A program made the position numbers and the translations under genes. A stretch of 19,290 bases of DNA from Candidatus Altarchaeum sp. (GTDB lineage Archaea > Altiarchaeota > Altiarchaeia > Altiarchaeales > Altiarchaeaceae): positions 1-19,290 of the forward strand of contig JAGWDQ010000079.1 in assembly GCA_018260615.1 (NCBI GenBank), written 5' to 3'. The notes below the pieces were generated by a model that was not told where the DNA came from, searched no databases, and saw only the letters and a list, made by a program, of their open reading frames with translations. Of the stretch, positions 1 to 18,805 are shown piece by piece (position 1 is the stretch's first letter; each line of letters starts with the position of its first letter).

Positions 1-91
1 TAATTATAAATTAACATTTATTTAAAAAACGCAATTTATGTGGTTGGGCAGTATAATTAAATTTTGGATATTAAATAAATGAAAATAAAAA

Positions 92-1120
92 TCACAACTT
101 TAAATCATCTAAAGGACTTTTAATTTTCCTCAGATTTTTATTGCTTACATGAGTGTATATTTCAGTTGTCTTTGAACTTGCGTGTCCAAGTAATTCCTGA
201 ATATATCTTAAGTCAACTCCGCTTTCAAGTAAATGAGTTGCAAAACTATGCCTCAGGCAATGAACAGAAACATCTTTTTTAATATCTGCTAAATTTACGG
301 CACTTTCAAAAATTGCCTGAACCGTTCTTGTGGAGATACGCCCTTCTGATTTTGATCCCGAAAATAACCATTTTTGTATTTTGTATCTTTCAAAATATTG
401 ATTGAGAACTGAAAGAGCAACATCAGAAAGTATTGTATATCTGTCTTTTCTCCCTTTCGCGCCTTTAACATGGATTAATTTCCTCTCATCGTCAATATCC
501 CCTTTCTCTAATTTCACAACTTCACTGACTCCCAATCCGGCGGAATAGATAAGCATTAAAATTGCCTTGTGCTTAATGTTGGAAACAGATGAAAGAATCA
601 TCGTAACCTCTTCCTGGCTTAAAACAACCGGTAGTTTTTTATCTTTTCTCGGGCGTTTTATTTCATAAACAAAATCTCTCTTTAGAATTTTCCCATAGTA
701 GAAATTCAGGGCGTTCACTACGATATTGAGGGTGGAAGCAGCAGAATCTTTCTTTTCAACAAGATGAAAAAGATAATCTTTTATGTTGGATTCATTTATC
801 TCCGGCGGACTTTTGCCTGCGAATTTAACGAGTTCCCTGTTGTAGTGAAGGTATGATTTAACCGTTTTTGGACTGTACTTTCTTGAAACAAGCTCTCTTT
901 CAAGAATGTGAAATTCCTGTAACGCAGGATCAATATTTATATCTTCTCTTGAGAATACGGATAAAATTTTATTCACAACGCCGTCGGTATCAGGGAAATA
1001 CCAGTATTTCTCCTGAATGTTCCACCGGTATCCGTCAATAAATTTAATCTTCTCTATGTATTCTTTGTTGTACTGGAATTTAACCGCTATTTTATCACCA
1101 ATTTTTTCAATAGTAATCAT
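92..1120 (-). CDS. Tyrosine recombinase/integrase (XerC/D-like, integron-integrase-related clade lacking the IntI insertion); first catalytic Arg replaced by Gly (G197), probably inactive
   Basis: Motifs KGAKGRKDR (K222), HCLRHSFATHLL (H287, R290), LLGH (H313), TTEIYTH (Y322) and C-terminal KSPLD; N-terminal SAM-like region. Box I reads YSAGLGVSE instead of YSAGLRVSE. Confidence 0.9.
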   Translation of the reverse strand: MITIEKIGDKIAVKFQYNKEYIEKIKFIDGYRWNIQEKYWYFPDTDGVVNKILSVFSREDINIDPALQEFHILERELVSRKYSPKTVKSYLHYNRELVKFAGKSPPEINESNIKDYLFHLVEKKDSAASTLNIVVNALNFYYGKILKRDFVYEIKRPRKDKKLPVVLSQEEVTMILSSVSNIKHKAILMLIYSAGLGVSEVVKLEKGDIDDERKLIHVKGAKGRKDRYTILSDVALSVLNQYFERYKIQKWLFSGSKSEGRISTRTVQAIFESAVNLADIKKDVSVHCLRHSFATHLLESGVDLRYIQELLGHASSKTTEIYTHVSNKNLRKIKSPLDDLKL

Positions 1121-1326
1121 TTTATATCACTTGATATCACAGTACATCCTCGCTTCTAAGTTTTAGAGACACCTTAGGCAGGCTTTTTATTAACGATGGA
1201 GGGAATGCCCGAGTATTCTCCACCGGCAGTGCATGTGATTTCTTGGTGCACATATTAAATAAAATAAAAATACAAATAAAAATTCAAATTTTGTAAATAA
1301 ATATGAATGCAAATAATTAAATAAAT

Positions 1327-2730
1327 TTAATTTTTACTTTCCTTTTCCAACTCCCAAATATGCTTCATCTTTTCAATAAAAAATTTACTTATCTTCGTCA
1401 GTTCGCAAATTTCATCAACGCTCATAAATTCAAAAGCACTATAAATATAAAACATCCTGTCATCTGTCGGCTCAATTAAATTTTTCCGTATTTCCTCAAC
1501 ATTGCTACTTATATTTTCAAGCCCGTATTTCTTTATATCTAAACCTCTTATTGCCTTCTGAAACGCCTCTTCAAAATTTCTTCCGATTGCCATAACCTCT
1601 CCCGTGCTTTTCATCTGCGTTCCGATATGTTTATCTGCAGTCCTAAATTTATCAAACGGCCATCTCGGAATCTTCACAACGACATAATCAAGTGCCGGCT
1701 CAAAGAATGCCATCGTTTTCTTCGTGATTGCGTTCGGAATTTCGTCTAAATTTTTTCCTATTGCAATTTTTGTGGCAACCCTTGCTATCGGATAACCGGT
1801 TGCTTTGGATGCTAATGCGGAAGACCTTGACATTCTCGGATTTACCTCAATAACGATATGTTCCATCGTTTCCGGATGGACTCCGAACTGAACATTACAA
1901 CCGCCCCTGACATCCAATGCCCTTACTATCCGGACAGATGCCTCTTTAAGGACTCTGTTATCATTATCGCTTAATGTCTGTGCAGGTGCTACGACAATAC
2001 TTTCTCCGGTATGAATTCCGACAGGATCTATATTTTCCATGCTGCAAATAATAACGCAATTATCTCTGTTATCCCTGACAACTTCGTATTCATATTCATA
2101 CCAGCCGTAAATACTCTTTTCTATTAAAACCTGATGATTTAAACTGTGATAAAGTCCTCTTTTGGCAATTTCTTCAAGTTCTTCCTCATTATGTGCAATT
2201 CCTCCGCCTGTTCCCCCGAGCGTAAATCCGGGCCGGACAATAACCGGATAGGAAATTTCTTCTGCAAAATTTTTTGCCTCTTCAACAGACAAGACAGCTT
2301 TACTTGCGGGAATCTTTTCACCTATTTTTTTCATTAAATTTGCAAATCTTTCTCTGTCTTCCCCGTTTCTAATCGCTTCAACAGGTGTTCCCAAAACCTT
2401 TACATCATACTTGTCCAAAATTCCTGCATCCTGCAATCCCATAGCTAAATTTAATCCCGTCTGGCCGCCCATTGTAGGTAAAATCCCGTCTATCTTTTCT
2501 CTTTCAATAATCTTCTCTAAAATTTCAACCGTCAGCGGCTCAATATAAACACGGTCGGCAATATCCGTATCAGTCATTATTGTGGCAGGATTCGGATTAA
2601 TAAGTATTACTTTGATGCCTTCTTCTTTTAATGTCAGGCATGCCTGTGTTCCGCTGTAATCAAATTCTGCCGCCTGTCCGATTAGTATTGGTCCCGAACC
2701 AATGATTAATACATTTTTTGGCTTTTCCAT
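1327..2730 (-). CDS. carB: Carbamoyl-phosphate synthase large subunit, N-terminal half (split CarB1)
   Basis: [97 protein letters not shown]. The ORF ends at 467 aa, versus about 1070 aa for full-length CarB. Confidence 0.93.
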
Positions 2731-2769
2731 TTTTCTATAATTTTAAATTTTTTCAATAAATTTCTTTAA

Positions 2770-2863
2770 ATTTTCGTCAGACGCCTATTATTCATCACAA
2801 AATATATATCTTAATTATGTCTGTAAGGCATTTCAGAATAGGTCAATATCATCATCCGAAAAT
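2770..2863 (-). ncRNA. Box C/D sRNA (double kink-turn RNA), copy 1
   Basis: Minus strand reads ATTTTCG-g-ATGATGA (C, 2849-2855), 12 nt, CTGA (D', 2833-2836), 34 nt, GTGATGA (C', 2792-2798), 11 nt, CTGA (D, 2777-2780), CGAAAAT. This gives a perfect 7-bp terminal stem and the canonical 3-nt k-turn bulge. Confidence 0.78.
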
Positions 2864-2864
2864 G

Positions 2865-2896
2865 TAATTAAATTTAGAGATAATTAAATTTAGAGA
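2865..2896. repeat. Exact 16-bp tandem duplication TAATTAAATTTAGAGA x2, just upstream of the C/D RNA (also at 7107-7138)
   Basis: Read directly from the sequence. Confidence 0.9.
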
Positions 2897-3166
2897 ATGA
2901 AATTTTTAGAAGTGTGTTTTAACACTTTGAAATTTTTAAAATTTGTCCGAACATATTTGCGTTGATTTTTAAAGATCATCTAAGAATTGAATATGTTTAT
3001 CTTACATTCCGCACATCCAATAAAATTTTTTAATTTAATCATGGAGAAAATCACCTTACCTTCGTTCAGAGATTTACTCTGTTAGTTCGTAAATAGTATT
3101 AATGAATTTAGTATGCTTAAAAGGGATGATGATATTTTGTAATCAAAAAGTTATTTTATTTATTTT

Positions 3167-3217
3167 TATGCAATTATAATTATTTTATGCAATTATAATT
3201 ATTTTTATAATTGCATA
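3167..3217. promoter_or_regulatory. Operator-like triple site TATGCAATTATAA: direct copies at 3167-3179 and 3186-3198, inverted copy at 3205-3217
   Basis: Three exact 13-mers; the last two form a palindrome with a 6-nt spacer, upstream of the HD operon. The regulatory role is inferred. Confidence 0.45.
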
Positions 3218-3245
3218 CTATCTTTGCTCTCATTTAAAATCTTAC

Positions 3246-3326
3246 AGAGGGCTGTCTAATAATTCAATTTTCACGCATAATTTACTCTCAAAATAGGGGC
3301 AAAAAACTAATTGTTGGGCATCCTCT
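3246..3326. mobile_element. 81-bp MITE-like element with imperfect terminal inverted repeats
   Basis: Left end AGAGGGCTGTCTAATAATT vs reverse complement of right end AGAGG-ATGCCCAACAATT (14/19). No target-site duplication seen. Confidence 0.4.
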
Positions 3327-3459
3327 TCGGATTTTTAAAATGCAAAAATCAAAATATCGGGGAAAAATAAAATTTTTAATTTGAAAGTGCGGAATGTAGA
3401 TCATATTACTAAAAAATTAATTAATCAAAAAAAATAAAAGTGGTTTGATTTAATCTAAG

Positions 3460-4731
3460 ATGTTTAAACCTATTCGTGATCCAATTTGGGGGGATATAAA
3501 TCTTCAAGATGGTGTCAAAAAGATAATTGACACCAGATCCATACAAAGATTAAGACATATTCGGCAGGAAGGATTTACATTTCTATCTGTTCCATCAGCA
3601 AACCACACAAGATTTGAACATATTCTGGGCACTTTTCATTTGCTACATTGTTGGAGGGAGTCAAGAGAAGAAATAACTGATTTAGACCAATTGGCACTTT
3701 TGCATCACATAGATGATACACCTTTTACTTACGCCACTCGTGAAATAATAGAAATGATCCAGAATGAAACTTGGAAGGGAGATGCAGAAAAAAGAAAGCA
3801 ATTTATTAAAGGACTGATCAGTACGGAAATATCCGATAACAATAAACGTAGCGAACTTACCGACAGTATTATCAAGTTTGGAGGAAGAGAACTCGAAGTT
3901 AACATATTATTTGCTGCAAATAATATAGATACGATATGTAGAAATGCATATTATCTTGGATTAGGGCGACCCACAGTAATTGATGCAATAACAAAAATTA
4001 AACCTAAAAAGGAAGATAGGATAACTTTTGATAAAAATATCTTTACGTCTGTCATTTTAGAAGAACTAAAAAATGAGGCATTAACAAATATAGTGGCACA
4101 TATCTCCATGAGTAACAGCAGAATGTTTGCGAGGATAGTTACACGACTTTTATACTTTCTTTACAAGGATGAGATACAATTAGATATGCCATTGAACGCC
4201 CTTTTAAAAGATGTTGTGACCGATACAGAAAAATTTTTAGAGTTTAATGATGATTCTTTGTTATATGTATTAGATAAGTTAAAAGAAAGAGGAGAAGTAA
4301 GTAAAGAAATAAATGAGTACTTAGATATCTATTCCGGAAAGATAAAGTACCCACAACCCCCTCTTGAATATGATATTTCTAATATCCATCTTAACAGCGA
4401 TGATTATACTAATAAAAAATATGATCAGATGATGTTTCAAAATAAAATAGGAAACATGAATATGGAGAAGCAAATTAATCTCGAGAGGGACATACGGGAT
4501 CAATATTCTTTGAAACATCCTGTAATAATTGATATACCTTACAAATCTATAAAATCAAGATTCTTGTCATGTTTGGCTTTGAATTACGGGGAGGGGAGCG
4601 ATATAAAACTCTCCCCATCCGACAGCATTCCTGAAAGTACCAAAAAGATAAGAATTTTTTTACACAAGGACGACTACAACAAAATCAATAAGGACAAACT
4701 TTTTAAATTAATAAAATCAAAAATTGAATGA
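3460..4731 (+). CDS. SAMHD1/YwfO-like HD-domain protein, catalytically degenerate (pseudoenzyme)
   Basis: RDPIWGDI, IDTRSIQRLRHIRQ and HTRFEH are present. The HD motif reads LLHHIDDTPFTY instead of LLHDIGHGPFSH, and AANNIDTICRN replaces DxDxxDYxxRD. Confidence 0.85.
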   Translation: MFKPIRDPIWGDINLQDGVKKIIDTRSIQRLRHIRQEGFTFLSVPSANHTRFEHILGTFHLLHCWRESREEITDLDQLALLHHIDDTPFTYATREIIEMIQNETWKGDAEKRKQFIKGLISTEISDNNKRSELTDSIIKFGGRELEVNILFAANNIDTICRNAYYLGLGRPTVIDAITKIKPKKEDRITFDKNIFTSVILEELKNEALTNIVAHISMSNSRMFARIVTRLLYFLYKDEIQLDMPLNALLKDVVTDTEKFLEFNDDSLLYVLDKLKERGEVSKEINEYLDIYSGKIKYPQPPLEYDISNIHLNSDDYTNKKYDQMMFQNKIGNMNMEKQINLERDIRDQYSLKHPVIIDIPYKSIKSRFLSCLALNYGEGSDIKLSPSDSIPESTKKIRIFLHKDDYNKINKDKLFKLIKSKIE

Positions 4732-4743
4732 AAAATAAATAAA

Positions 4744-5157
4744 ATGGCAGCAAGAGAATTGGCATACATGTTGGGCAAAATGTTTAACGAGGAAAATCAG
4801 AACAAAGGAATTGTACATGACCTTGCAGTAAATTGGTGTGTATTCAAATGTCAAGAGAATGGGGCTATAAAAGATTATAAAAGATCTCTGTTAACTATTA
4901 ATGGACCAATAAATGAAGATGTGTTTTTTGATATTTCGCTTTTGCAAGATACTGGAATTATCGAGGTTAAAGGAAGATATGTGAAAGGAAATGGTATAGA
5001 TTGGCAGATGTTTATCAAAAGGATAGAAAAAGATGGATCGAAAGAGGAATTAGAAAAGATAAAAACTTCTGTAAATGACCTGAAAGCCGAAGTAGAAGAT
5101 TTCAAAGATGGAGAAAAATTGCTAAAAGGATGGATGGGATTAATGAAGAGAAAATAA
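4744..5157 (+). CDS. Small protein, probable divergent YwgA / Panacea (DUF4065, SocA-like) winged-helix family
   Basis: 137 aa, 12 nt after the HD1 stop. NGPINEDVFFDISLLQDTGII resembles the YGPYSxEL...L...G.(I/L) signature, and YwgA is known to sit next to the HD protein YwfO in Bacillus. The ORF itself is solid; the family call is moderate. Confidence 0.6.
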   Translation: MAARELAYMLGKMFNEENQNKGIVHDLAVNWCVFKCQENGAIKDYKRSLLTINGPINEDVFFDISLLQDTGIIEVKGRYVKGNGIDWQMFIKRIEKDGSKEELEKIKTSVNDLKAEVEDFKDGEKLLKGWMGLMKRK

Positions 5158-6746
5158 GACCTAATAGTACAAACATAAAAATTATAGGTATGACAATCTC
5201 TGATATTCTTGGGGACCCTGTATTGGGGGGAATAGAAATTGATAAAGATGAAAAAGGTTTAATTGAGTTGCCTGAAATGTATAGGCTCAGGCACATCAAA
5301 CAGAACAGTTTTTTATATTTAGTTTATCCTGGAGCATTACATACGCGATTTGAACATTCACTTGGTGTTTTTTATATAGCATCAAAGATATTTGATAGAG
5401 TAACAGAAGATGAACATTATAAAGGAATAAAAAATAAAACAGAGTGGAGAAAACGATTAAGAATTGCTGCGTTGTTACACGATATTGGTCATGGTCCATT
5501 AGCACATTTGTATGAAACTATGTTGGAACGCAATGGAATAACTGTAGAAGAGTTATTCAAGAATATTTTAATGGATAAAAAAATCAAACCGCCAAAAAAT
5601 AAAAAAATACATGAGGCCTTAACATATTATAAAATTCTAACATCAAAGTATATACGAGAATATATTGCCGATGTTTTCGACAAAGATCAGGAAAATGAAC
5701 TGAACAAAGAAGTTGAACGAATTGCACATTTATCGATAGGCGATTCTTCTTATGAGACGAAAGATACGGATTTTTGTTTTGCTTACGAAATTATAGCAAG
5801 TGAGTTTGATGCAGATAGAATAGAATATCTTGTAAGGGATTCATATTTTACGGGCGCAAAGTATGGAACATTAGATTATGAAAGATTAGTAAATTCAGGG
5901 TTTGCTATAAGAAAGGTTGGAAAAGACAAAGATTCTATGAGGAAGTTATGTATAGACGAAGAGAAGGGATTGACTCCTGCGGAATCTATAGTGGTGGCAA
6001 GAGCACAAATGTATCCCTATGTGTATCTTCATTCAACTGCAAGAGCAATTACAGCTATGTTTGTTAGAGCGTTTGATAGGATTTACGAAAATTACAAAAA
6101 TGAGGAAGATAAAAAAAATTTTATAAAAAAGACATTGGAAATGAAAGATTATGAATTTATATACGAAATGAAAGATAAAGATGAAACAGGACTCATACAA
6201 AACATTATGGACCGAAAACTTCATAAAAAGATAAAGATTGAGGGATGGAAATATAAATATGTGAAATGGCAAGAATTACATCCCGAGGTTAGAGAAGTTA
6301 TAGAGAACATAGCAAATAGAAAGGATAAATACAATATTTTAAAAAAATGTGAATACAAACTTGAAGAAGAACTTAAAAACAACATAGGCAAAGATATTAA
6401 AAATGAAAAGTATGGGAAGTATCCAGTAATTATAGATATACCTTCATTCCCTCGTTTGGAGGAATTAAAAGCTAAAGTTAAGAGCAATAATGAAACAAGA
6501 TCATTAGAAGATGTGTCAAAGATAGCGTGGATTTCGAAAGATGTGATGAGATCTAACTGGAAAATGTTTTTATTTGTTGATCCGTCTTTAAAAGAGATGA
6601 TAGGAGGAAACTCAGAGGATGCAAAAAAGCTACGGAATAAAATAGAGGAATATGTTAAAAACTTTTTTTCATTTGAAGGATATGGAGAGGCGGCAACTGT
6701 GATGAGGGAGGCAATAAAAGAGGCAGAAAAGAAAATGAAGAACTAA
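5130..6746 (+). CDS. SAMHD1/YwfO-like HD-domain dNTP triphosphohydrolase, catalytic residues intact (start may be ATG 5190)
   Basis: RLRHIKQ, YPGALHTRFEHSLGV (H76), LLHDIGHGPLAH (H117, D118, H121, H126), HE (H161), DADRIEYLVRDSYFTG (D229, Y233, D237). Confidence 0.9.
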   Translation: MDGINEEKIRPNSTNIKIIGMTISDILGDPVLGGIEIDKDEKGLIELPEMYRLRHIKQNSFLYLVYPGALHTRFEHSLGVFYIASKIFDRVTEDEHYKGIKNKTEWRKRLRIAALLHDIGHGPLAHLYETMLERNGITVEELFKNILMDKKIKPPKNKKIHEALTYYKILTSKYIREYIADVFDKDQENELNKEVERIAHLSIGDSSYETKDTDFCFAYEIIASEFDADRIEYLVRDSYFTGAKYGTLDYERLVNSGFAIRKVGKDKDSMRKLCIDEEKGLTPAESIVVARAQMYPYVYLHSTARAITAMFVRAFDRIYENYKNEEDKKNFIKKTLEMKDYEFIYEMKDKDETGLIQNIMDRKLHKKIKIEGWKYKYVKWQELHPEVREVIENIANRKDKYNILKKCEYKLEEELKNNIGKDIKNEKYGKYPVIIDIPSFPRLEELKAKVKSNNETRSLEDVSKIAWISKDVMRSNWKMFLFVDPSLKEMIGGNSEDAKKLRNKIEEYVKNFFSFEGYGEAATVMREAIKEAEKKMKN

Positions 6747-6989
6747 AGAAAATCAGAGAATAAATAATTCTGTATTTAATTAAAAGGCAACCATTAAAGA
6801 CATAAAAAATTTGAGAAATTTACTAAAAAATCAGGTTTTGCGATTTAATTTTTAGAATCATGTTTTTGAATCTGTGATAATAGCAACTTTCAAAATAACC
6901 CCATTGCCGTTTAGAGAGTTTGAAATAGCAATCTCACGACATTAAAAATAAGAGCCATTTGGTTTTTCCTTTTTTGTGCATTTCTTTCT

Positions 6990-7159
6990 TTTTTTCAATA
7001 AATTTCTTTAAATTTTCGTCAGACGCCTATTTTTCATCACAAAATATATATCTTAATTATGTCTGTAAGGCATTTCAGAATAGGTCAATATCATCATCCG
7101 AAAATGTAATTAAATTTAGAGATAATTAAATTTAGAGAATGAAATTTTTAGAAGTGTGT
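6990..7159. repeat. 170-bp direct repeat, copy 2 (right island boundary)
   Basis: 169/170 identical to 2748-2917. Confidence 0.97.
7012..7105 (-). ncRNA. Box C/D sRNA, copy 2
   Basis: C 7091-7097, D' 7075-7078, C' 7034-7040, D 7019-7022, same 7-bp terminal stem. Differs from copy 1 only at position 2 of the D guide. Confidence 0.75.
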
Positions 7160-7162
7160 CTT

Positions 7163-7521
7163 AAAGATTTCTAAATCACCTCGCTGTCACCTCACTTACG
7201 CTCACTTCGTTCGTGTATTTTAAATACTCTTCGTATTTAAAATCGTTCGGAGATTTAAAATTTCTATGAGAAATTTAAAATCGTTCGGAGATTTAAAAAT
7301 TTGTGAAATTTTTAAATAACCTCGCTGTCGCAAAAATCTACAAGATTTTTGGGATATTCAAAAATTACCTCGCTGTCGCTCGGAGATTTTCAAATCTCTA
7401 CGATTTGAAAATGCTTGAAGCATTTTTGATATTGCTCGGATATTTCAAAATCCTTTGAAGATTTCTAAATCACCTCGCTCTTGCTCGGACATTTCAAAAT
7501 CTTTGAGATTTTTAAATAACC
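7163..7521. repeat. Array of short palindromes interleaved with a CCTCGCTGTCGCTCGG-type motif (REP/BIME-like)
   Basis: Perfect stems at 7217-7243, 7258-7276, 7291-7317, 7331-7351, 7386-7412, 7408-7426 and 7496-7512. CCTCGCTGTC occurs at 7179, 7320 and 7368, with a variant at 7473. Exact 26-bp repeat at 7235-7260 and 7273-7298. Confidence 0.85.
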
Positions 7522-7546
7522 CCATAATTCTATCCCATTATTTAAA

Positions 7547-8389
7547 ATGGGGGATAAATTTTTATTTGCCAATTCGGAAAAAGAAGACGCAGATGTATGT
7601 ATATTCGGAATGCCGTTTGATTCAACAACCAGTTTTAAACCCGGAACACGACTTGGGCCAAGAGCAATAAGAGACGCATCGTACAATCTGGAATTTTACA
7701 GCATGGCACTTGAAAGAAACATCAGGGATATTAAAATTTTTGATGCTGGAGATACTGGCTTTTATACAAATCCGCAGCACGCCATCTCCGAAATTTCCGA
7801 ACAGACAAGAGAGTTATTAAAATCGGATAAATTTATAGTCGGACTTGGCGGAGAGCATACTGTAAGTTATGGAATTGCACATGCAATGAAAGAAATTTAC
7901 AAAGATGTTGCAGTAATACAGTTTGATGCTCATGCCGATTTAAGAACTGTCTATGATTTTGAAAAATTTTCCCACGCGTGCGTTATGAATTTAATCGGAA
8001 ATGATATTGGCTTTGAAAATATATACCAGTTCGGGATAAGGTCAGGGGAAGAAGAAGAACTGAAATTTGCAGAAAAGACAAATTTTTTTCCGCTTCATAA
8101 ATACGACACGGCCCAGATTTTAGAAATTTTAGACGAATTGAACATAGACAAAAAGGTTTATCTGACGATTGACATAGATGTGCTTGACCCCGCTTATGCA
8201 CCGGGCGTCGGAACACCTGAACCGGGAGGAATAACTTCAAACGAGATGTTTAAAATTTTAAATTCACTGAAAAAATTTGATATTGTTGGCTTTGATGTTG
8301 TTGAGGTAAATCCGATGGTTGATATGAGCGGAATTACAGCAATGCTCGCTGCAAAGATTATCAGAGAAGGTATCTTAAATTTCAGATGA
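7547..8389 (+). CDS. speB: Agmatinase (ureohydrolase family)
   Basis: PFDSTTSFKPGTRLGP, GGEH, DAHAD, SHA, GIRS, DIDVLDP, PGVGTPEPGG, DVVEVNP. Confidence 0.93.
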   Translation: MGDKFLFANSEKEDADVCIFGMPFDSTTSFKPGTRLGPRAIRDASYNLEFYSMALERNIRDIKIFDAGDTGFYTNPQHAISEISEQTRELLKSDKFIVGLGGEHTVSYGIAHAMKEIYKDVAVIQFDAHADLRTVYDFEKFSHACVMNLIGNDIGFENIYQFGIRSGEEEELKFAEKTNFFPLHKYDTAQILEILDELNIDKKVYLTIDIDVLDPAYAPGVGTPEPGGITSNEMFKILNSLKKFDIVGFDVVEVNPMVDMSGITAMLAAKIIREGILNFR

Positions 8390-8410
8390 AATAAATTAAA
8401 TTTTTTTAGG

Positions 8411-8707
8411 ATGGAAATTTCCAAATTTCAGAGGCATATAAAGGAAATTTATTTTGACAATGATTCAAAGCGGGGAAAGGAAAAAACATTTATCTGGCTG
8501 ATAGAAGAAATCGGAGAATTAGCAGAAGAAATCAGAAAGAGTGATAAGAAAAACGAAGCAATGGAGGCGGAATTTGCAGATGTGTTTGCATGGTTGTGCT
8601 CGGAGGCAAATTTATACGGGATTGATATTGAAAAGTGTGTAATAAACAAGTATGGAAATGGCTGCCCGAAATGCGGGAAAAATCCGTGTAAATGTAATAT
8701 GGAGTGA
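8411..8707 (+). CDS. MazG-like nucleotide pyrophosphohydrolase, archaeal type with C-terminal CxxC-x4-CxC
   Basis: WLIEEIGELAEEIRK and EAEFADVFAWL match the EExxE...ExxD motif; C-terminus CPKCGKNPCKC. Confidence 0.85.
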   Translation: MEISKFQRHIKEIYFDNDSKRGKEKTFIWLIEEIGELAEEIRKSDKKNEAMEAEFADVFAWLCSEANLYGIDIEKCVINKYGNGCPKCGKNPCKCNME

Positions 8708-8767
8708 AATAAACCAGTCAACGATTAAATTTATATTTTATCGTACAGGAAAGTTCGTTTTATTATC

Positions 8768-8884
8768 CTCACACGGAGACACAAGGACACAAAGGAGAAA
8801 TATACTGAAAATTCTTTGAGAATTTTCAATCTTTAAAAATCTGCTGATTTTTAAATACTCTCTGACTTTGTGGCTTTGTGTGAG
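8768..8884. repeat. 117-bp fold-back element: imperfect outer arms enclosing two perfect 10-bp hairpins
   Basis: Arms CTCACACGGAGACACAAGGACA vs reverse complement CTCACACAAAGCCACAAAGTCA (17/22; 20/22 allowing G-U on the + strand). Inner hairpins at 8806-8828 and 8832-8855. Confidence 0.75.
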
Positions 8885-8890
8885 CATTTT

Positions 8891-8916
8891 TTAAAAAGCA
8901 CCAACTCTATTGTAAA
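8891..8916. repeat. Solo copy of the MITE end found at 18788-18813
   Basis: TTAAAAAGCACCAACTCTATTGTAAA vs TTAAAAAGCAACAACTCTATTATAAA, 24/26 identical. Confidence 0.75.
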
Positions 8917-8998
8917 CAAATTAAAATTTAATTCGCAACTACGCCAATGTAATAAAGTTATTATTTTCAATTACTTTTCTGACTTTCTTATTATCTTC

Positions 8999-9097
8999 TT
9001 ATATCCCAAATGCGACCATTAAAAACCACATTACAAGTATTACCCACACAACAGTTATAACTCCTCCAACTGTAAGAGATACAAGGTCCTCATCCAT
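8999..9097 (-). CDS. Unannotated 32-aa single-pass membrane protein MDEDLVSLTVGGVITVVWVILVMWFLMVAFGI
   Basis: Hand-translated. ATG at 9097 preceded by AAA, as in rpoA', rpoB and carB; TAA at 8999-9001. Acidic N-terminus followed by an uncharged hydrophobic stretch of about 28 aa; co-oriented 81 nt after nusA. Confidence 0.6.
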   Translation of the reverse strand: MDEDLVSLTVGGVITVVWVILVMWFLMVAFGI

Positions 9098-9178
9098 TTT
9101 AAGATAAATTTATTGTTTGTTAAATTTATGTTTTTTATGTTTGTTAAATTTTAAATATTCAGGCATAAGCGAACTTAT

Positions 9179-9745
9179 TTATCTGTTAAATTTCCTGTCA
9201 TCTCGGTCTTTTCTGTCTCTCCTGTCAAACGATCGTTCTTTTCTGAAACTGTCATCTCTTTTGACATTGTCCGGGCGAAATGAAACATCTCTACGCTGAT
9301 GAGGCATCCCGGACATATCCGCTTTTATAATAATGTCCGCTATGTCAAACATTCTCCTGGCAAACAACTTTGCTATTGCAATCTTTTTATTGCTCTCGCC
9401 TACTGCTTTTCTATAGTCCTCTTTGGATATATCTGCGGAAGCAATTTTTCCTTTTGTCGTATCTGAAATTCGGACACTCCTGACATAAGCAGGATGTAAT
9501 GCGTACATTATAAATTTTTGCATATCCTGAGAATGCTGCATTAAAAATACCTGCTTTCCCAATTTATCCCTGACTTTATTGATGCTCTCACCATTCTTGC
9601 CAATTGCCATTCCCATATCTTTTTCATCAACTAAAAATCCTACCGCATCATCAATGCTGACGCAATCCATGGCGGACACACCTGTAAGTATTTCAAACAA
9701 AGTCATGTTCTTTATTTCGTCCGCGCCCCACTTTATAGTGCTCAC
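9179..9745 (-). CDS. nusA: Archaeal transcription elongation factor NusA with an extra R/D-rich C-terminal tail
   Basis: LFEILTGVSAMDCV, DMGMAIGKNGESI (KH1); conserved position after rpl30e; GTG start overlapping the rpl30e stop (GTGA). Confidence 0.9.
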   Translation of the reverse strand: MSTIKWGADEIKNMTLFEILTGVSAMDCVSIDDAVGFLVDEKDMGMAIGKNGESINKVRDKLGKQVFLMQHSQDMQKFIMYALHPAYVRSVRISDTTKGKIASADISKEDYRKAVGESNKKIAIAKLFARRMFDIADIIIKADMSGMPHQRRDVSFRPDNVKRDDSFRKERSFDRRDRKDRDDRKFNR

Positions 9746-10038
9746 TCTTTTATCTCTAATATATTTGAATCTCCCGGATTAATTATTGTTAATGAAGAAA
9801 TAGGAAACGGCTTTCCGCAATATTCTCCTAATGTCAAACTACTCAAATTAACCGTCGCATAGTCCGTACCCGAAATCTTGCAGTAATATTCTATCCTGTC
9901 TTTATCCTTGCAGTCCTTACTTATAATTATTTTCTTCGGATTGCCCATCAATAATGCGCGCATTGTTTCTTTTAGCCCCGAATATGTTTTTCCCGTTTTA
10001 ACACAAACACTTAATGCTGTTTTCAAGTCCATTTCCAA
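9742..10038 (-). CDS. rpl30e: 50S ribosomal protein L30e (start TTG 10038 or ATG 10032)
   Basis: VKTGKTYSG, SSLTLGEYCGKPFPISSLTIINPGDSNI; conserved position after rpoA''. Confidence 0.92.
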   Translation of the reverse strand: MEMDLKTALSVCVKTGKTYSGLKETMRALLMGNPKKIIISKDCKDKDRIEYYCKISGTDYATVNLSSLTLGEYCGKPFPISSLTIINPGDSNILEIKE

Positions 10039-10113
10039 ATAGTCAGTATTTTTATTTATTATATATTAATTATGACTTTAATAAATTAAATTTAAAGTAA
10101 ATAAATATAAAAT

Positions 10114-11196
<1,083 letters not shown>

Positions 11197-11231
11197 TTAC
11201 AATTATTCTAAAATTTATAAATTTTAAATTT

Positions 11232-13751
11232 TTATGAAAACCATTCAAATTTTTCTTCCTGTTTTTTATACACTAATGTTTTTCGTGAAGGATATATCCC
11301 GTCTTCACCATACAAAAACTGGATAATATTTCCTCCGCTGTCCCGCACAGCTCTGTTTTCATCAACCTTAAGGTCAAGTAAAGAGTTTATAAGTCGTCTT
11401 TGCAGATATCCGCTTCTTCCTGTCCTGATTGCCGTATCAACTAATGTTTCCCTGCCACCCATTGCATGGAAAAAATATTCTGTCGGAGTTATTCCATCCT
11501 TAAATGACGACCTGACGAAACCGCATGCCGAAGGTGAAAAGTCATTTCGTTTAAATGGGGATAATGTTCTGTCTATATAGCCCCTTTTTATTCTTTTTCC
11601 TCTTACTGCCTGTTGTCCGACTGTTGCCGACATTTGTGTGACATTAAGCATACTGCCTCTTGCACCCGTCTTTGCCATGATTATCGGAACATTATCAACA
11701 AGTGATGATGCCGCAATTTCTCCACATTCATTTCTTGCTTTACCCAGTTCTATCATAATGTAATCTTCCAGGGTGTCTTCCAGCGATTTTCCGACTATTG
11801 GCTTTAGCCCACCTTTCTCCTTTTGGGTTATGTATTCGGCAATTCTTTTTTCTGCATCATCCAGCCGGTTATTTATTTTTACTGTGGCGTCATTAGTTGT
11901 ATCTGTGGCATCAATACCCAAAGTAAATCCGTATATAGCGGTTGCTCTGATTGCCATCTTTGTTGATTTGTTTATAAAATCAGCTGCAGCATCCGGGCCA
12001 TAGTTATTAAATATTTCCTGTACTAATTCTCCCGACATACCTTCTGCATCAATGCTGCCCTCCGTTAATTTTCCGTTTTCTATGAGCACATTCTCTTTAA
12101 ATTTATTCACATAATTGGTCTTTAGATCTTTCGGTAACAATAACGAAAATATATCCTTTCCGGTAAAGTCCGTTTTTTCTTCGGGAAGTTTCAGTATTCC
12201 ACCTGTTATTTGTAGTGCAACTTCTCTTGAAATTTTTTCTTTGTTAGTTAAAATATACATTCCGGAAACATGATCATGTCTCCCTCCGATGATTGGTCCG
12301 CCATATCTTGGCGACATAATATGTTGATTAATTCCCATTAAGACCTCCTCTTCTACAACCGCTTCCTCGCTTTGACATACATGCATATTCATTTCATCTC
12401 CGTCAAAATCAGCATTGTATGGAGCACAAACAGCAGTATTTATCCTGAATGTTCTTCCGTCCATAACCCTGACTTTGTGGCACATCATAGATCCTATATG
12501 GAGTGATGGCTGCCTGTTAAATATTACAATATCTCCGTCCATCAGATGTCTCTCCACAACATCCCCTATAGTTAATGTTTCTGCTATATCTTCTTTATTA
12601 TTATCAAGGATTCTCTTGTTTTTTCCGTCTTTTGTAACAATTCTGGACGCACCCGGATAATTACTTCCGTTTAATATATATTTTCTTAATCGTTCAATAT
12701 TATAGTCCGTTACTCTTTCGGGAACAGACATGTCCTTTGCAATAAGCTTTGGAACACCTAGTTCATTAATATCTATGTTCGGGTCCGGACTTATTACTGT
12801 TCTTGCCGAAAAATTTACTCTCTTTCCTGAAAGATTATTCCGGAATCTTCCTTCTTTTCCCTTTAATCGCTGGCAGATTGTTTTTAAAGGCCTTCCGCTT
12901 CTGTGTCTTGCAGGTGGTACTCCTCCTAATTCATTATCAAAATATGTGGCCACATGGTATTGTAATAAACTCCATAAGTCCTCAATTATAATTTGCGGTG
13001 CCCCGGAATCAATTGTTGCTTTTATTCTTTCATTTATTCTTAATATATCTACTAATTTGTGCGTCAAATCATCTTCGCTCCTTGTAGATGATTCTAATGT
13101 TATAGAGGGTCTTGAAATTATTGAAAGAACCGGAAGAACCCTTAAAATCATGTTTTCCGGTCTGACATTTATCCTTAAATATTTCAGGTCATCATCCCTG
13201 ACCTTCTTAAGCCACTCTTCAATATCAGTTATTAATATGGAATATTCCTCATCTTTTCCTATTACCTGATAATAAGAATAGGGTTTTACAAATTTTATTT
13301 TCATTGGCTCTGCCCCGCAATGTGTACATGGCCCGTCATCTCTCTTTCTTGCATCTTTTTCTGTTTTTGTACATTCCTCTTCATCACCCCTGTTAAGAGC
13401 ATCCTTAAATTTTTTCCTTTCGTCATCCGTAAATTTTAAGCCCCCACATTTTCTGCAACTCAACTCTAAAATTCTAAATATTTCCTTTGCATAGCCAACA
13501 TGAACAACGGGCCTTATAAGTTCAATATGTCCGATGTGCCCGAGACACTCATTCATCCTGCCCCCGCATGTCTTGCATTTTATTCCCGGATCAATAACTC
13601 CCAGACGAGGATCCATCAGGCCCCCTGCCACGGGGTATCCGTCATCGGCATAAGTTGTCGGGTCTTTTATTTCCGCAACAGATAATTTTCTTATAAGGTT
13701 TTCCGATGCCAGTTCAAATTGTATTGACTCAATCTTTTTTTGGAGAGACAT
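11232..13751 (-). CDS. rpoA1: DNA-directed RNA polymerase subunit A' (Rpo1N)
   Basis: Catalytic NADFDGD; CKTC...CLGHIGH zinc site; GKEGRFRNNLSGKRVNFSARTVISPD; FNRQPSLH; bridge helix FFHAMGGRE...SGYLQRRL. Confidence 0.98.
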   Translation of the reverse strand: MSLQKKIESIQFELASENLIRKLSVAEIKDPTTYADDGYPVAGGLMDPRLGVIDPGIKCKTCGGRMNECLGHIGHIELIRPVVHVGYAKEIFRILELSCRKCGGLKFTDDERKKFKDALNRGDEEECTKTEKDARKRDDGPCTHCGAEPMKIKFVKPYSYYQVIGKDEEYSILITDIEEWLKKVRDDDLKYLRINVRPENMILRVLPVLSIISRPSITLESSTRSEDDLTHKLVDILRINERIKATIDSGAPQIIIEDLWSLLQYHVATYFDNELGGVPPARHRSGRPLKTICQRLKGKEGRFRNNLSGKRVNFSARTVISPDPNIDINELGVPKLIAKDMSVPERVTDYNIERLRKYILNGSNYPGASRIVTKDGKNKRILDNNKEDIAETLTIGDVVERHLMDGDIVIFNRQPSLHIGSMMCHKVRVMDGRTFRINTAVCAPYNADFDGDEMNMHVCQSEEAVVEEEVLMGINQHIMSPRYGGPIIGGRHDHVSGMYILTNKEKISREVALQITGGILKLPEEKTDFTGKDIFSLLLPKDLKTNYVNKFKENVLIENGKLTEGSIDAEGMSGELVQEIFNNYGPDAAADFINKSTKMAIRATAIYGFTLGIDATDTTNDATVKINNRLDDAEKRIAEYITQKEKGGLKPIVGKSLEDTLEDYIMIELGKARNECGEIAASSLVDNVPIIMAKTGARGSMLNVTQMSATVGQQAVRGKRIKRGYIDRTLSPFKRNDFSPSACGFVRSSFKDGITPTEYFFHAMGGRETLVDTAIRTGRSGYLQRRLINSLLDLKVDENRAVRDSGGNIIQFLYGEDGIYPSRKTLVYKKQEEKFEWFS

Positions 13752-13960
13752 TTTTAATGTTATTGAATTTTTAAATTTTAATAAATTTATTTGTTATTGA
13801 TTTGTTAGTAAAAAATTTTCTTCACCGGTTTGCTTTTTCTTTTCCTGAATGCTTTTCTTTTTTAAAGAAAAGGTTCTTGTGAGAGACATTTTATTTGGTG
13901 TTTATTTGATATTGATATTTGCTAAATTTATTTATTATTAATTTGTTAGTAAAAAATTTT
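13743..13960. repeat. Tandemly duplicated rpoA' leader and start (about 77-80-bp unit at 13743-13819 and 13881-13960)
   Basis: GAGAGACATTTT at 13743 and 13881. A 38-mer at 13782-13819 matches 13923-13960 at 36/38 positions. Confidence 0.8.
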
Positions 13961-13964
13961 GTTG

Positions 13965-16900
13965 TTAAATTTTATCTTTCAGTTTAAATTTTGTAACTAT
14001 TCCTATGCCTAATAGTTCTGAAATTAAAAGTTTAAATGCGTAGGCAATCTCTATTTCATAGACCTGAGAGTCCCCACAAACAGGACAGGTAAATTTATTT
14101 CTTTCATAATCATGAACCGCCATCACACCACATTTTGAACAAAGAGGGATTTTAACCTTATCGGACTCATCAAGCAACCTGTCTTTTAATACCGCAGATG
14201 CACCGTGTCCAATCAAACAATCTCTCTCCATCTCTCCGAATCTTAAACCACCGTGCTTTGCCCTGCCTTCCGTTGGTTGTCTCGTAAGCATCTGAACCGG
14301 TCCTTTTGCCCGGGTGTGAATTTTATTTGCAACCATGTGATGAAGCCGCTGATAATAAATAACACCGATAAAAATTTCCGCCTCTATTTTTTCTCCTGTT
14401 CTTCCATCATATAAAATTTGCTTCCCGTTGTTCTTAAATCCAAAATTTTCAAGGACTTTTCTTAAATCAGATTCTTTTTCATTTTCAAACGCTGTCCCGT
14501 CAATAAATCTCCCGTCCAGGCATCCTGCTGTACCTCCGAGCATTTCAATAAGATGCCCGACTGTTGTTCTTGAAGGTATGGCATGAGGATTCATAATAAG
14601 GTCGGGAACAATTCCTTCATTAGTAAATGGCATATCTTCTTGTCTTACGGTCATTCCGATAACTCCTTTTTGTCCGTATCTTGATGCCAGTTTATCTCCG
14701 ATTTCAGGTATTCTCGGGCTTCTCGTTTTAATTTTTATCATTGTGTTTCCTTCGTCTGTTTCCGTAAGAACGACACTCTCAATCCACCCGCTTTCCATTT
14801 CATTTGCAGTTACCGAGGCATCTCTTCTCCTCTCGGCAATTCTTCCGAACATACTTATTTCCTCCAAAAATCTCGGGGGCGCGGTTTTTCCTACAAGTAC
14901 ATCTTCACTGTTAAATTCTGTCTCGGGAAGTATTATTCCGTCATTACTTAAATTTTTATACGCGTCTGCCGGCAGGTGCCCTTCAACATCTTCTTTTGGA
15001 ATCTCAAACCTGTCCTGCTGGGCACCGTGATAATGAACTTCTTCCGCAGTATAAGTTCTGTAAAAAGTTGATCTGCCTAATCCCCTTTCAAGGGAACTTT
15101 GATTAATTACTATTGCATCTTCCATATTATATCCATCATAAGATAAAAGTGCTACGACAAAATTTTGTCCTGCGGGCATTTTATCAAAATGAAATATTTC
15201 CGAAACATCTGTTCTGACTACCGGTCTTTGCGGATAATCCATAACATGCATTAAACTATCAAGACGGGATGGAAAAGATGTTGTCGGGATTCCTACTGCC
15301 TGTTTTGCCATTGCCGATGCCATTTCCACTCTTGGTGCGGAATTATAATTTGCGAATGGAATATATCCCTCGGCAATACTTGTTAATATAGAAGGTGTAA
15401 TCTCTGCATGGGTGTGTTCGGTTGTTATCTTGTCACGAGTAATTGCAATGTACGCCTCTTCTTCCTCAGCGGCATCAACATACTCAACAATACCTTTCTT
15501 CACTAAAACCTCAAACTTCAGCCCCTTATTCTTTACATCTTCAATCAGACCATCTCCTTTTTTATTTAAATTTTTCACTACTATTAATGGCCGCAATATT
15601 CTTCCGGCACCGGAATAAACCTGGACTTCATTATTTCTTTCTTCGTAAGCAATAGATACATCATAGTCAATCTTTCCGTTTCTTCTTTCCTCTCTTAAGT
15701 CCTCAACAAGTTTTTTTGGTTCCGGATGACTGCCAATAAGTACCCCGTTAACATATACATCAGTACTGTATGCGCTTTGAGAACATATTTTTTCTAATTT
15801 TTCTCTTACATAAGAATCGTCTCTTTCTTTGCTTATAATTGCTCCCACAGTTAAATTTTTAACTAATCCGCAGTTTTTTCCTTCCGGTGTTTCGTTAGCA
15901 GAAACCCTTCCCCATTGTGTGGCATGAACATCTCTTGCTTCAAAATGAGGTCGTGTTTTTTCCAGTAAAAGAGATATTCTTCTTCTGTGTGAAATTGATG
16001 AAAGAAATGTTGTTCTGTCAAGAACCTGACTTATTCCGCTTCTTCCTCCGGTCCAGTTACCTGTTGCCAGTGCAAATTCTATTCGTTCATCCATTGTCCT
16101 GCTGCGAACAGCGTTGCTTACGGTTACATCCCTCTTTCGTGTATGCTGTTTTTCAAGCTGGTATTTTATGTCCTTAAGAAGCATGCTAAAACTTACCCTG
16201 AACAATTCCTGAAGCAAATCACCTGCAAGCCGAACCCTTTTGTTTTGATAATGATCCTTGTCGTCTTCATTTCTCTTTCCCTGTAATAATCTTATTGCTT
16301 TCTTTGCCATAATTGCCAAAAATCTTGCTTTTGCATTTCTTACATTCTTATTGTTTCCTATATGCGGCAACAGATAATTGTCTATTGTCTGTTCTGTTCG
16401 CAGTTCCTGATATTCTTCGGCATGCCCGAAACTAATCTTCTTGCATAATTTTTTAAAGGCCTCATCGGATGACTCTTCCGTTAATGTTGGCACTATTTCT
16501 GCACGGGTGTCTTCGTCAAACAATTCCATAATTTCGCTATTTGTCAGACCCAGCGCCTTGGATAAAAATCCGAATGGCACATTTGTTGCACCGGGAAATG
16601 AAACATTAATGGACGGAGAATTTTCTATTTTTTCCACAGTCGTTCTTGATCTGAAACCATGTCTTATTGACGAAACCTTTGCCATTGCAGTATTCTTTCC
16701 TAAATTATCCTCAAAAGTAACTATTATTTTATTTGGCGCTACATCTTCAACTCCGATAAGCACTCTTTCGGTTCCATTTACAATAAAATATCCGCCCGGA
16801 TCTTCCTGGTCCTCTCCGTTTGCGATTAATTCATCATCAGACAATCCGTTTAACAAACATATCTTTGATTTTAACATAATAGGAAGATGCCCTATAAACA

Positions 16901-17231
16901 GGTCTACCTCCCGGCTTTCATCTTTTTCATTACCTTCTTTGTCCTTCTTTTTATGTGTTTCTTCAACTGTTAATATCATCCTTGCGTGATATGTGATGTT
17001 TTTAATTCTATACTCCGATACATGTCTGTCTTTTAATCCCCCCTCGGTTTCTTCATTCAAAGGGATTACTTTGATTTTTTTCAGGGTTATAGTATAGTCC
17101 TCAATATTCACAGGCAAAATTTTTCTTTCGTCAATTACCTGTTGAAGTCCTTCGGATATTAACCAGTCATAAGAATCAATCTGGTACTTCATTATTGCAT
17201 CCTTATCAAGAAAATCCGTCATCCGTAACAT
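13965..17231 (-). CDS. rpoB: DNA-directed RNA polymerase subunit B (Rpo2, unsplit)
   Basis: GGYFIVNGTERV, ETPEGKNCGLVKNL, GYNMEDA, GDKLASRYGQKG, PDLIMNPHAIPSR, RQPTEGRAKHGGLRFGEMERD; C-terminal CxxC/CxxC zinc ribbon. Confidence 0.98.
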   Translation of the reverse strand: MLRMTDFLDKDAIMKYQIDSYDWLISEGLQQVIDERKILPVNIEDYTITLKKIKVIPLNEETEGGLKDRHVSEYRIKNITYHARMILTVEETHKKKDKEGNEKDESREVDLFIGHLPIMLKSKICLLNGLSDDELIANGEDQEDPGGYFIVNGTERVLIGVEDVAPNKIIVTFEDNLGKNTAMAKVSSIRHGFRSRTTVEKIENSPSINVSFPGATNVPFGFLSKALGLTNSEIMELFDEDTRAEIVPTLTEESSDEAFKKLCKKISFGHAEEYQELRTEQTIDNYLLPHIGNNKNVRNAKARFLAIMAKKAIRLLQGKRNEDDKDHYQNKRVRLAGDLLQELFRVSFSMLLKDIKYQLEKQHTRKRDVTVSNAVRSRTMDERIEFALATGNWTGGRSGISQVLDRTTFLSSISHRRRISLLLEKTRPHFEARDVHATQWGRVSANETPEGKNCGLVKNLTVGAIISKERDDSYVREKLEKICSQSAYSTDVYVNGVLIGSHPEPKKLVEDLREERRNGKIDYDVSIAYEERNNEVQVYSGAGRILRPLIVVKNLNKKGDGLIEDVKNKGLKFEVLVKKGIVEYVDAAEEEEAYIAITRDKITTEHTHAEITPSILTSIAEGYIPFANYNSAPRVEMASAMAKQAVGIPTTSFPSRLDSLMHVMDYPQRPVVRTDVSEIFHFDKMPAGQNFVVALLSYDGYNMEDAIVINQSSLERGLGRSTFYRTYTAEEVHYHGAQQDRFEIPKEDVEGHLPADAYKNLSNDGIILPETEFNSEDVLVGKTAPPRFLEEISMFGRIAERRRDASVTANEMESGWIESVVLTETDEGNTMIKIKTRSPRIPEIGDKLASRYGQKGVIGMTVRQEDMPFTNEGIVPDLIMNPHAIPSRTTVGHLIEMLGGTAGCLDGRFIDGTAFENEKESDLRKVLENFGFKNNGKQILYDGRTGEKIEAEIFIGVIYYQRLHHMVANKIHTRAKGPVQMLTRQPTEGRAKHGGLRFGEMERDCLIGHGASAVLKDRLLDESDKVKIPLCSKCGVMAVHDYERNKFTCPVCGDSQVYEIEIAYAFKLLISELLGIGIVTKFKLKDKI

Positions 17232-17326
17232 TTTTATTTTGGTTTATTTTTATTTTGTAAAACACTTAAATTTAATTAAAATTTATCTTAAAGCACAATA
17301 AAAAACATAAAAATCAGATTAAATTT

Positions 17327-17647
17327 TTAAATTTCCGATGATTCGTCTTCTTCCTCTCCCACATCGTCAGCATACTCTGCAATTTCCTCTTCGGTACGTT
17401 CAGAAGCACCCTTTCCGTGAATCGTTCCTGAAATAACAACCCTGTAATAGAATGCCGTTCCTGCGGTCGGGCTTTTTCGGGTTATTTTTATTACATCGCC
17501 GGGTTTTGTATGTAATTCGGTTATTGCCGCATCAAATTCATAAATTTTCGGTAGTTTGTCCTTTGTTACATTATACTTATTCAATAGTTCTCCAACTTCT
17601 TTTTTTGTTATCACCTCGTGTTTGGGAATTAAAATGTGAGATACCAA
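17327..17647 (-). CDS. rpoH: RNA polymerase subunit H (Rpo5) with acidic C-terminal extension; TTG start
   Basis: HILIPKHEVI, KLPKI, PGDVIKITRKSPTAG...YYRVV; first gene of the conserved rpo operon. Confidence 0.93.
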   Translation of the reverse strand: MVSHILIPKHEVITKKEVGELLNKYNVTKDKLPKIYEFDAAITELHTKPGDVIKITRKSPTAGTAFYYRVVISGTIHGKGASERTEEEIAEYADDVGEEEDESSEI

Positions 17648-17754
17648 TTTAGAAAATTTTAACTTTTTAAATTTATAACTTTAATTTTTAGGGTTTATTA
17701 ATTAGAAGGAGATATAAATAAAGACCAAAAAATAAATGCCTGCATAAAATTTTT

Positions 17755-18579: not shown

Positions 18580-18657
18580 TTTAGAGTTGTTAAAAAAATT
18601 ATAAAATTCTTTATGAATTATGATTTGATAATTTTTAAATATTATGTTGTTTGTATT

Positions 18658-18805
18658 AGAGTTGTTGCGAAATAGTTTATACGGGTTATTTTATACCATA
18701 CTAAAAATACTCGGAGTATTTTTAATAGACATGTTGCTTAATAAAATTTTTACCTTCAATTTTTACTAAAATTTACCCTCAAATCTCTTAAAAAGCAACA
18801 ACTCT
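18658..18805. mobile_element. 148-bp MITE with 11-bp perfect TIRs (AGAGTTGTTGC) and apparent ATT target-site duplication
   Basis: TIRs at 18658-18668 and 18795-18805; ATT at 18655-18657 and 18806-18808; internal 10-bp hairpin at 18702-18724. Confidence 0.65.

Follow-up and report, generated by a model that had tools for sequence, protein, structure and literature searches.

Antiviral depletion of nucleotides has its textbook example in SAMHD1-type enzymes, and in SAMHD1 itself a guanine-nucleotide allosteric pocket assembles and switches on the tetramer. How cells keep nucleotide-depleting enzymes off until they are needed is an active question. One recent answer is the Clover anti-phage system, a partner-restrained defensive deoxynucleoside triphosphate hydrolase (dNTPase) composed of the dGTPase CloA and the nucleotidyltransferase CloB (PMC12265719). 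Here we describe a three-gene cassette in a 19,290-nucleotide (nt) stretch of DNA from Candidatus Altarchaeum sp. (contig JAGWDQ010000079.1, positions 1 to 19,290), which is referred to as the window in the following. The cassette encodes a SAMHD1-fold paralogue that is predicted to be catalytically dead (HD1), a small protein of 137 amino acids (aa) and an active-type SAMHD1-like phosphohydrolase (HD2). The trio is a real but rare variant of partner-regulated dNTPase modules, and the dead paralogue is its new element; in the literature nothing was found on a pair of YwgA-like and SAMHD1-like proteins, on SAMHD1 combined with Panacea or on the trio. We give an even chance to the explanation that the three genes form one mobile functional module encoding a partner-regulated SAMHD1-type (d)NTP triphosphohydrolase, with three roles placed on three proteins and a nucleotide-depleting role in conflict as the likely function.

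By its domains and residues HD2 is a canonical HD plus HD_assoc_2 enzyme with predicted dNTPase activity. It matches the Pfam families HD (PF01966, E 1.6e-8, 35.3 bits, cut-off 22) and HD_assoc_2 (PF19276, E 5e-28, 98.5 bits, cut-off 23.1), and its sequence matches in the PDB are 2hek, 2q14, EF1143 (2o6i) and SAMHD1, the closest solved relatives being dNTPase-family proteins. The PADLOC dGTPase model matches HD2 over the HD motif alone (~60 residues, E 7.5e-7), and with the NCBIfam model antiphage_dGTPase (NF041026) HD2 scores 19.8 bits, below the cut-off of 400. An initial reading of the DNA made without database searches, here called the sequence-only reading, had proposed that HD2 keeps all catalytic residues and is altered at the position of the IDTxxxQRLR motif. 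Alignment confirmed both: HD2 and five relatives have the complete H...HD...D metal ligands together with equivalents of the catalytic residues H210, H215, Y315 and D319, and E46, Y51 and R54 stand in HD2 at the positions of SAMHD1 D137, Q142 and R145, with no basic residue at the K116 position. A nucleotidyltransferase domain, as in the Pol-beta partner of the Clover type, was detected by Pfam scan in neither of the two HD2 partners, and the island has three genes only. A housekeeping HD paralogue, common to relatives, is already present in the same genome.

HD1 matches no model in Pfam (HD and HD_assoc_2 included), NCBIfam or PADLOC; since it is found by neither of these two Pfam families, HD2 is the only family member at the level of sequence. 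HD1 can be aligned with HD2 over the whole length (BLASTP, 23% identity over ~440 columns, E 7e-15) and PVIIDIP ends the core of both proteins, in agreement with their initial description as diverged full-length paralogues. The HD1 family profile was aligned end to end (positions 2-430) with the fungal SAMHD1 structure 9mr6, and the AlphaFold model of HD1 (predicted local distance difference test, pLDDT, 83.5) matches SAMHD1 chains with a probability of 1.00 and a query TM-score (TMq) of 0.55-0.61 over ~470-480 alignment columns. Oligonucleotide-bound SAMHD1 structures (6u6z, 8tdv, 8d94) are among the top matches of the model. Because of the alignment with HD2, the profile alignment and the match of the model, we assign HD1 to the SAMHD1 family. 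In an ungapped alignment to full-length SAMHD1 (numbering of 7ujn) residue i of HD1 is SAMHD1 residue i+113, which places D24, Q29 and R32 at D137, Q142 and R145. In place of LLHDIGHGPLAH of HD2, HD1 has LLHHIDDTPFTY, and DADR of HD2 corresponds to AANN in HD1. The initial statement that HD1 lacks the metal and catalytic residues thus stands for the catalytic ones; of the four metal ligands, however, only two are lost and the equivalents of H167 and H206 remain. The nucleotide-reading residues of IDTxxxQRLR are retained as had been stated, and this holds for all four HD1-type proteins.

A family-wide view was obtained with an alignment of 70 sequences, comprising four HD1-type proteins, six HD2-type proteins and 60 other homologues. 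D207, H210, H215, D311, Y315 and D319 are invariant in the 60 other homologues and kept in all six HD2-type proteins. In all four HD1-type proteins D207 is replaced by H, H210 by D or E, H215 by Y, D311 by N or S and Y315 by T, A or S, and in three of the four D319 is replaced by N; equivalents of R164, H167 and H206 are still present in these proteins. The residues of the allosteric pocket show the reverse distribution. D137 is present in each of the HD1-type proteins, in none of the HD2-type proteins and in 39 of the 60 others, and Q142 in four of four, two of six and 56 of 60, respectively. R145 is kept in all HD1-type proteins and in 53 of the 60 others, and the HD2-type proteins are divided between R (three) and K (three). 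The K116 position is basic in four of four HD1-type proteins and in none of the six HD2-type proteins (K in 28 of the 60 others). The complementary losses that had been noticed in the window therefore extend through the family, with catalytic residues lost on one side and allosteric residues eroded on the other. Since every HD1-type protein found has these substitutions, the pattern is not due to chance. Judged by these alignments, HD1 is a conserved pseudoenzyme in which the replacement residues are themselves fixed, and the loss of otherwise common pocket residues is an unusual event on the HD2 side. Site 1 and active site are located on one chain in SAMHD1; here site 1 is eroded in HD2 and the catalytic residues are lost from HD1.

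The nearest relatives of HD2 are sharply set apart as a clade of their own, and their contigs bear the same three genes. Altogether, the trio was found in seven diverged lineages (the window, L015, L099/L100, L101/L102, L103/L104, L105 and L129), so that the triad of dead HD, small protein and active HD proposed by the sequence-only reading is conserved elsewhere. In L015, HD1 (432 aa), the small protein (137 aa) and HD2 (486 aa) are 39%, 27% and 47% identical to the window proteins. L099/L100 encodes a small protein of 141 aa, an HD2 of 525 aa and an HD1-type protein of 455 aa; in L101/L102 HD1 is cut by the contig end and followed by a small protein of 141 aa and an HD2 of 491 aa, and a DUF6338 protein (194 aa, L101:2699-3283) is encoded 3' of this trio. 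L103/L104 has an HD1-type protein of 448 aa, a 162-aa gene product and an HD2 of 465 aa. HD1 of L105, likewise cut by the contig end, matches the L103 HD1 with its C-terminus (E 1e-8) and is accompanied by a 176-aa protein and an HD2 of 539 aa. In L129, the HD2-type protein of which (588 aa) is named Omnitrophica by its source, the HD1-type protein (482 aa) has the sequence SHH...SYAT and a match to its HD1-type counterpart in L103 (E 1e-29), and the small-like protein (192 aa) is related to the small family with an hhalign probability of 92%. The small proteins of L103 and L105 have no detectable sequence homology to the small family (hhalign 0.2%); their position and size alone make them equivalents. 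HD2 is in every case immediately preceded by the small gene, often with an overlap, and HD1 may lie before or after the two. A quick maximum-likelihood tree recovers HD1 and HD2 as two monophyletic clades (Shimodaira-Hasegawa-like approximate likelihood ratio test 100 and 90) that are congruent inside, L103 being basal and the window, L099 and L015 lying in the crown. The branches of HD1 have about double the length of those of HD2.

HD1 has no close relative among 40 relatives searched, three of them from the same genus. Searches of species-representative genomes returned only ordinary HD paralogues with ~30% identity in the N-terminus, and a metagenome scan with HD1-specific peptide patterns gave at least 600 pattern matches, with no relative among the matches listed. 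The SAMHD1-like genes found in IMG/VR and phage records were all generic, none of them encoding an HD1-type protein.

The small protein matches nothing in Pfam, NCBIfam, PADLOC or PHROGs, and an exhaustive profile search in 1.84 billion proteins found seven representatives of its family. Its model (pLDDT 91.3) has as best solved match chain 7yk3_D of the Mycobacterium tuberculosis DarTG complex (Z 11.2, root-mean-square deviation 3.0, 131 of 137 residues); in a Foldseek comparison with the DarG C-terminal domain an E of 0.014 and a TMq of 0.59 were obtained. The next structural matches are winged-helix domains, in which ~80-97 residues are covered with Z up to 9.7. Structural neighbours in the ESM Atlas include clusters that consist to 97% of PF13274. 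DUF4065, the SocA_Panacea family, was described in 2026 as homologous to the toxin-binding C-terminal domain of DarG in 7YK3 (PMC13621843). The third component had initially been called YwgA/Panacea-like. This is right for the predicted fold, which is that of Panacea and the DarG C-terminal domain, but not for membership by sequence: none of nine small-family members matches SocA_Panacea (PF13274) even at E <= 10, which puts the family outside PF13274.

Relatives of the small protein also occur in other surroundings. Two of them (P0138 and P0139) head a conserved operon with AAA_28 P-loop and CYTH-domain proteins (L106:8001-9585, L109:4536-6118 and L110:134-1716), whose chromosomal context is stable in two further archaeal assemblies; from these operons it appears that the family also partners other predicted nucleotide-handling proteins. 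The genome of the window contains a second accessory pair (C80:6517-8410, L118/L119), in which an active-type SAMHD1-like HD gene (444 aa) is followed by a gene for a 163-aa protein with a weak match to PF13274 (22.5 bits, cut-off 25.7). The hidden Markov model of the small family also matches this Panacea-like protein weakly (E 0.013; hhalign probability 5%). An orphan 155-aa paralogue of it is encoded between pheT-like and purF-like genes (C79:33248-33664, L120), and neither the pair nor the orphan was found in any of the other 60 genomes of the class. Ordinary archaeal HD genes had no YwgA neighbours in more than 80 loci. One further active-type HD protein (P0005, 678 aa, on a 9.7 kb ENA contig) has a C-terminal extension of ~240 aa with a stretch that resembles the central motif of the small family. 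It was rejected as a fusion of HD and small protein because the hhalign match of the extension is not significant.

The window is archaeal, encoding RNA polymerase subunits B, A' and A'', a NusA-like KH protein and L30e, and belongs to a groundwater metagenome-assembled genome of 148 contigs that is 87% complete. Three tightly packed, co-oriented genes in a repeat-bounded island had been proposed here, and this was confirmed: the genes for HD1, the small protein and HD2 form a tight operon on the plus strand with intergenic gaps of 12 nt and at most 32 nt, they are the only open reading frames (ORFs) inside the island, and a direct repeat is present on both sides (Table 1). The ORF described for HD2 is also present. 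Its first ATG is probably not the start; we prefer the ATG at M21, which agrees with the N-termini of homologues of HD2 and has an AGGT close by on its 5' side.

Table 1. Coordinates of the island features in the window
Feature	Position	Strand	Description
Left direct-repeat copy	2717..2922		carB start codon region and ~190 nt upstream; near-identical core 2748-2922
AT-rich non-coding leader	2923..3459	+	No ORF; absent from relatives and sister strain
HD1	3460..4731	+	423 aa; SAMHD1-fold paralogue, predicted catalytically dead, keeping allosteric-site-1 residues K3, D24, Q29, R32
Small protein	4744..5157	+	137 aa; predicted winged-helix core and C-terminal helices; DarG C-terminal-domain/Panacea-like fold
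HD2	5130..6746	+	Active-type SAMHD1/EF1143-like HD + HD_assoc_2 phosphohydrolase; 538 aa from ATG 5130, 518 aa from the likelier ATG 5190
Non-coding tail of the island	6747..6957		No ORF; inside the segment missing from empty-site alleles
Right direct-repeat copy	6958..7164		carB start codon equivalent mutated

The cassette is a strain-variable insertion of ~4.1 kb, bounded by a direct repeat of 175-207 nt. The core of the repeat (175 nt, 2748-2922 and 6990-7164) is 99% identical, and a blastn self-match extends it to 207 nt with 94% identity (2717-2922 and 6958-7164). Three genomes of the same genus have an empty site, in which speB, a single copy of the repeat segment, carB and the integrase gene follow each other directly. 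Furthermore, a sister strain from the same aquifer (second sample of the same study) has an abundant, ~3% diverged contig that joins position 2921 to 7458. In the source sample island and flanks have equal depth. The small family was not found in the remaining 60 species genomes of the phylum, and the L099 trio lies between two 100% identical copies, 269 nt long, of the purB 5' end.

Next to the island lies a gene for a 467-aa N-terminal half of CarB (1327-2730), beside a tyrosine recombinase gene (92-1120). Since the gene order is the same in congeners, the recombinase is considered resident (possibly XerA-like) and carB apparently split. The integrase was ruled out as the recombinase of the island, because its gene is located at the same site in congeners without the island. 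When window positions 1-2950 are compared with the NCBI assembly of the same organism (L016), a different upstream context with a 1325-aa PQQ-repeat protein is joined to carB in the latter, and the segments 1439-1549 and 2890-2947 of the window are missing; a difference in assembly or between strains at repeats is the probable cause.

The promoter or operator of the island is presumably located within the leader. This region contains an inverted repeat (3003-3036 and 3365-3398, ~330 nt apart) with a perfect core of 11-12 nt (ACATTCCGCAC and GTGCGGAATGT) and, at 3160-3215, a ATGCAATTATAATTATTTT motif in tandem, which has a palindromic partner; pieces of the leader also have matches on other contigs of the genome. 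The leader repeats may represent operators or a small element that was inserted. On the other side, the region upstream of speB (7165-7546 and ~8736-8800) is composed of dispersed short repeats, TCGTTCGGAGATTT... and AAATCACCTCGCT being examples of their units. These units are present at at least 60 places in the genome, at 20-70 times the depth of the flanking contig, and the block 7180-7457 is absent from congeners and the sister strain.

In the partner-regulated dNTPase that we propose, HD2 would be the catalytic subunit. The pseudoenzyme HD1 would most likely join it in a hetero-oligomer as the sensing and activating subunit, and the small protein would most likely bind HD2 and restrain or gate it, by analogy with the action of Panacea/DarG antitoxin domains on toxins. 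The biological output would likely be nucleotide depletion in a conflict system, either antiviral or toxin-antitoxin-like. A hetero-oligomeric enzyme is the best fit because the trio is co-inherited and co-diverging and the residue patterns are complementary; a role in conflict is plausible because of the mobility and patchiness of the cassette, the kinship with SAMHD1 and the Clover precedent. Enzymatic activity, physical complexes, division of sensing and the defence role are what we infer from these observations. More tentatively, labour may be divided within the SAMHD1 family such that a pseudoenzyme provides the allosteric sites that sense nucleotides or nucleic acids, a paralogue the catalysis and an antitoxin-fold protein the clamp. 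The whole would be a hitherto undescribed three-component module for nucleotide depletion, serving immunity or addiction and passing between Archaea and Bacteria as a cassette without recombinase; this is possible, and we would not yet lean on it.

Several observations weigh against a sensing hetero-oligomer that acts in conflict. D137, Q142 and R145 are common throughout the family (39-56 of 60), so that their retention in HD1 is ancestral and no proof of sensing. The tree gives no sign that HD1 is a recent duplicate of HD2. The small protein escapes the PF13274 model and resembles winged-helix DNA-binding domains, thus it could be a transcription factor, and its family also adjoins AAA_28 and CYTH genes or occurs alone, without an HD gene. 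The module is very rare, and the link to defence islands suggested by the sequence-only reading was not borne out: no defence islands were seen in the visible neighbourhoods of the trios, which are flanked by housekeeping genes.

The alternative that survives best, though we regard it as unlikely, is a classical toxin-antitoxin system, with HD2 as nucleotide-depleting toxin, the small protein as direct-binding antitoxin and HD1 as an accessory, which may be a decoy or guard for viral dNTPase inhibitors or a stabiliser and would be loosely comparable to the third component of tripartite toxin-antitoxin systems. Such a system would agree with the fixed order of the small gene immediately 5' of HD2, often overlapping, next to a variable position of HD1, with the fold of the DarG toxin-binding domain and with a mobile, strain-variable cassette. 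However, it leaves unexplained why HD1 keeps the allosteric-pocket residues while HD2 loses them, and the small family is also found without an HD partner.

Somewhat less probable still is that the small protein is a winged-helix transcription regulator and that HD1 and HD2 are a horizontally acquired housekeeping or salvage pair for the nucleotide pool, without a function in conflict. Many winged-helix DNA-binding domains match the model of the small protein (Z 6-9.7), one neighbour cluster in the Atlas is labelled transcriptional regulator, repeats and palindromes are present in the leader (3003-3398), and relatives of the protein head the AAA_28 and CYTH operon in its stable chromosomal context. 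The best and sole full-length structural match, in contrast, is a protein-binding antitoxin domain, the genome already has its housekeeping HD paralogue common to relatives, and the cassette is absent from close kin and from the co-occurring strain.

Improbable in our view is an HD1 that is not inert and uses its remodelled pocket (H...HH, D/E, Y) for a new ligand or activity, acting on or sensing viral nucleic acid, for example through guanine-containing single-stranded nucleic acid at site 1, which SAMHD1 can bind there. The replacement residues (HH, YAT) are conserved in all four HD1 proteins, R164, H167 and H206 equivalents are retained and oligonucleotide-bound SAMHD1 is among the top structural matches, but these matches merely reflect the shared fold, and we know of no HD-superfamily chemistry with the residue set of HD1. 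That HD1 is a decaying, functionless duplicate, as its lost catalytic residues and its rate of about twice that of HD2 might suggest, is effectively refuted by conservation, since its ORFs are intact and full-length wherever it lies wholly on a contig, fold and motifs are preserved at 28-39% identity and the same substitutions are fixed in all HD1 proteins.

Under the partner-regulated dNTPase reading, the cassette appears to put allosteric sensor and catalytic centre on separate proteins and to add an antitoxin-like clamp, so that each regulatory step would be separable by deletion or mutation of one gene. If this is true, it would exemplify regulation by a pseudoenzyme in prokaryotic conflict systems, and Archaea, from which few defence modules have been characterised, would gain a candidate; the rarity of the cassette limits its practical reach.

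SAMHD1 and the EF1143-type dNTP triphosphohydrolases (COG1078) have the domain pair and the metal and catalytic residues in common with HD2, and the fold and the site-1 residues (D137, Q142 and R145 equivalents) in common with HD1; nucleotide depletion, the output of these enzymes, is presumed here. They are homo-oligomers in which every chain is catalytic and allosteric, whereas in the trio the residue sets are split onto two co-evolving paralogues and an obligatorily linked, antitoxin-shaped third protein is added. In the two-gene pairs of YwgA/Panacea-like and SAMHD1-like proteins, such as the C80 pair, a small protein with the DarG C-terminal-domain fold is likewise coupled to an HD_assoc_2 enzyme, and these pairs are also mobile and patchy. 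They lack the dead HD1, and the small protein of the trio belongs to a separate, rare family and is encoded in the order small-then-HD. Clover resembles the trio as a defensive dNTPase that a dedicated partner restrains and that is under allosteric nucleotide control (PMC12265719), features that are predicted for the trio. The Clover regulator is an enzyme that makes the inhibitory nucleotide p3diT, whereas the partners in the trio are a pseudoenzyme paralogue and a small binding protein, and CloA and HD2 are likened by role. DarTG and Panacea (DUF4065, PF13274) are connected to the trio by the small-protein model, which superposes on the toxin-binding C-terminal domain of DarG; the trio has neither a macrodomain nor DarT nor a significant PF13274 match, and its presumed target is an HD hydrolase. 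Pseudoenzymes that act as regulatory subunits of paralogous enzymes are known from HisZ with HisG and from the trypanosomatid 'prozymes'. There, too, a dead paralogue is kept as allosteric or activating partner, and although the protein families are unrelated and the analogy is mechanistic only, HD1 may take a comparable place beside HD2.

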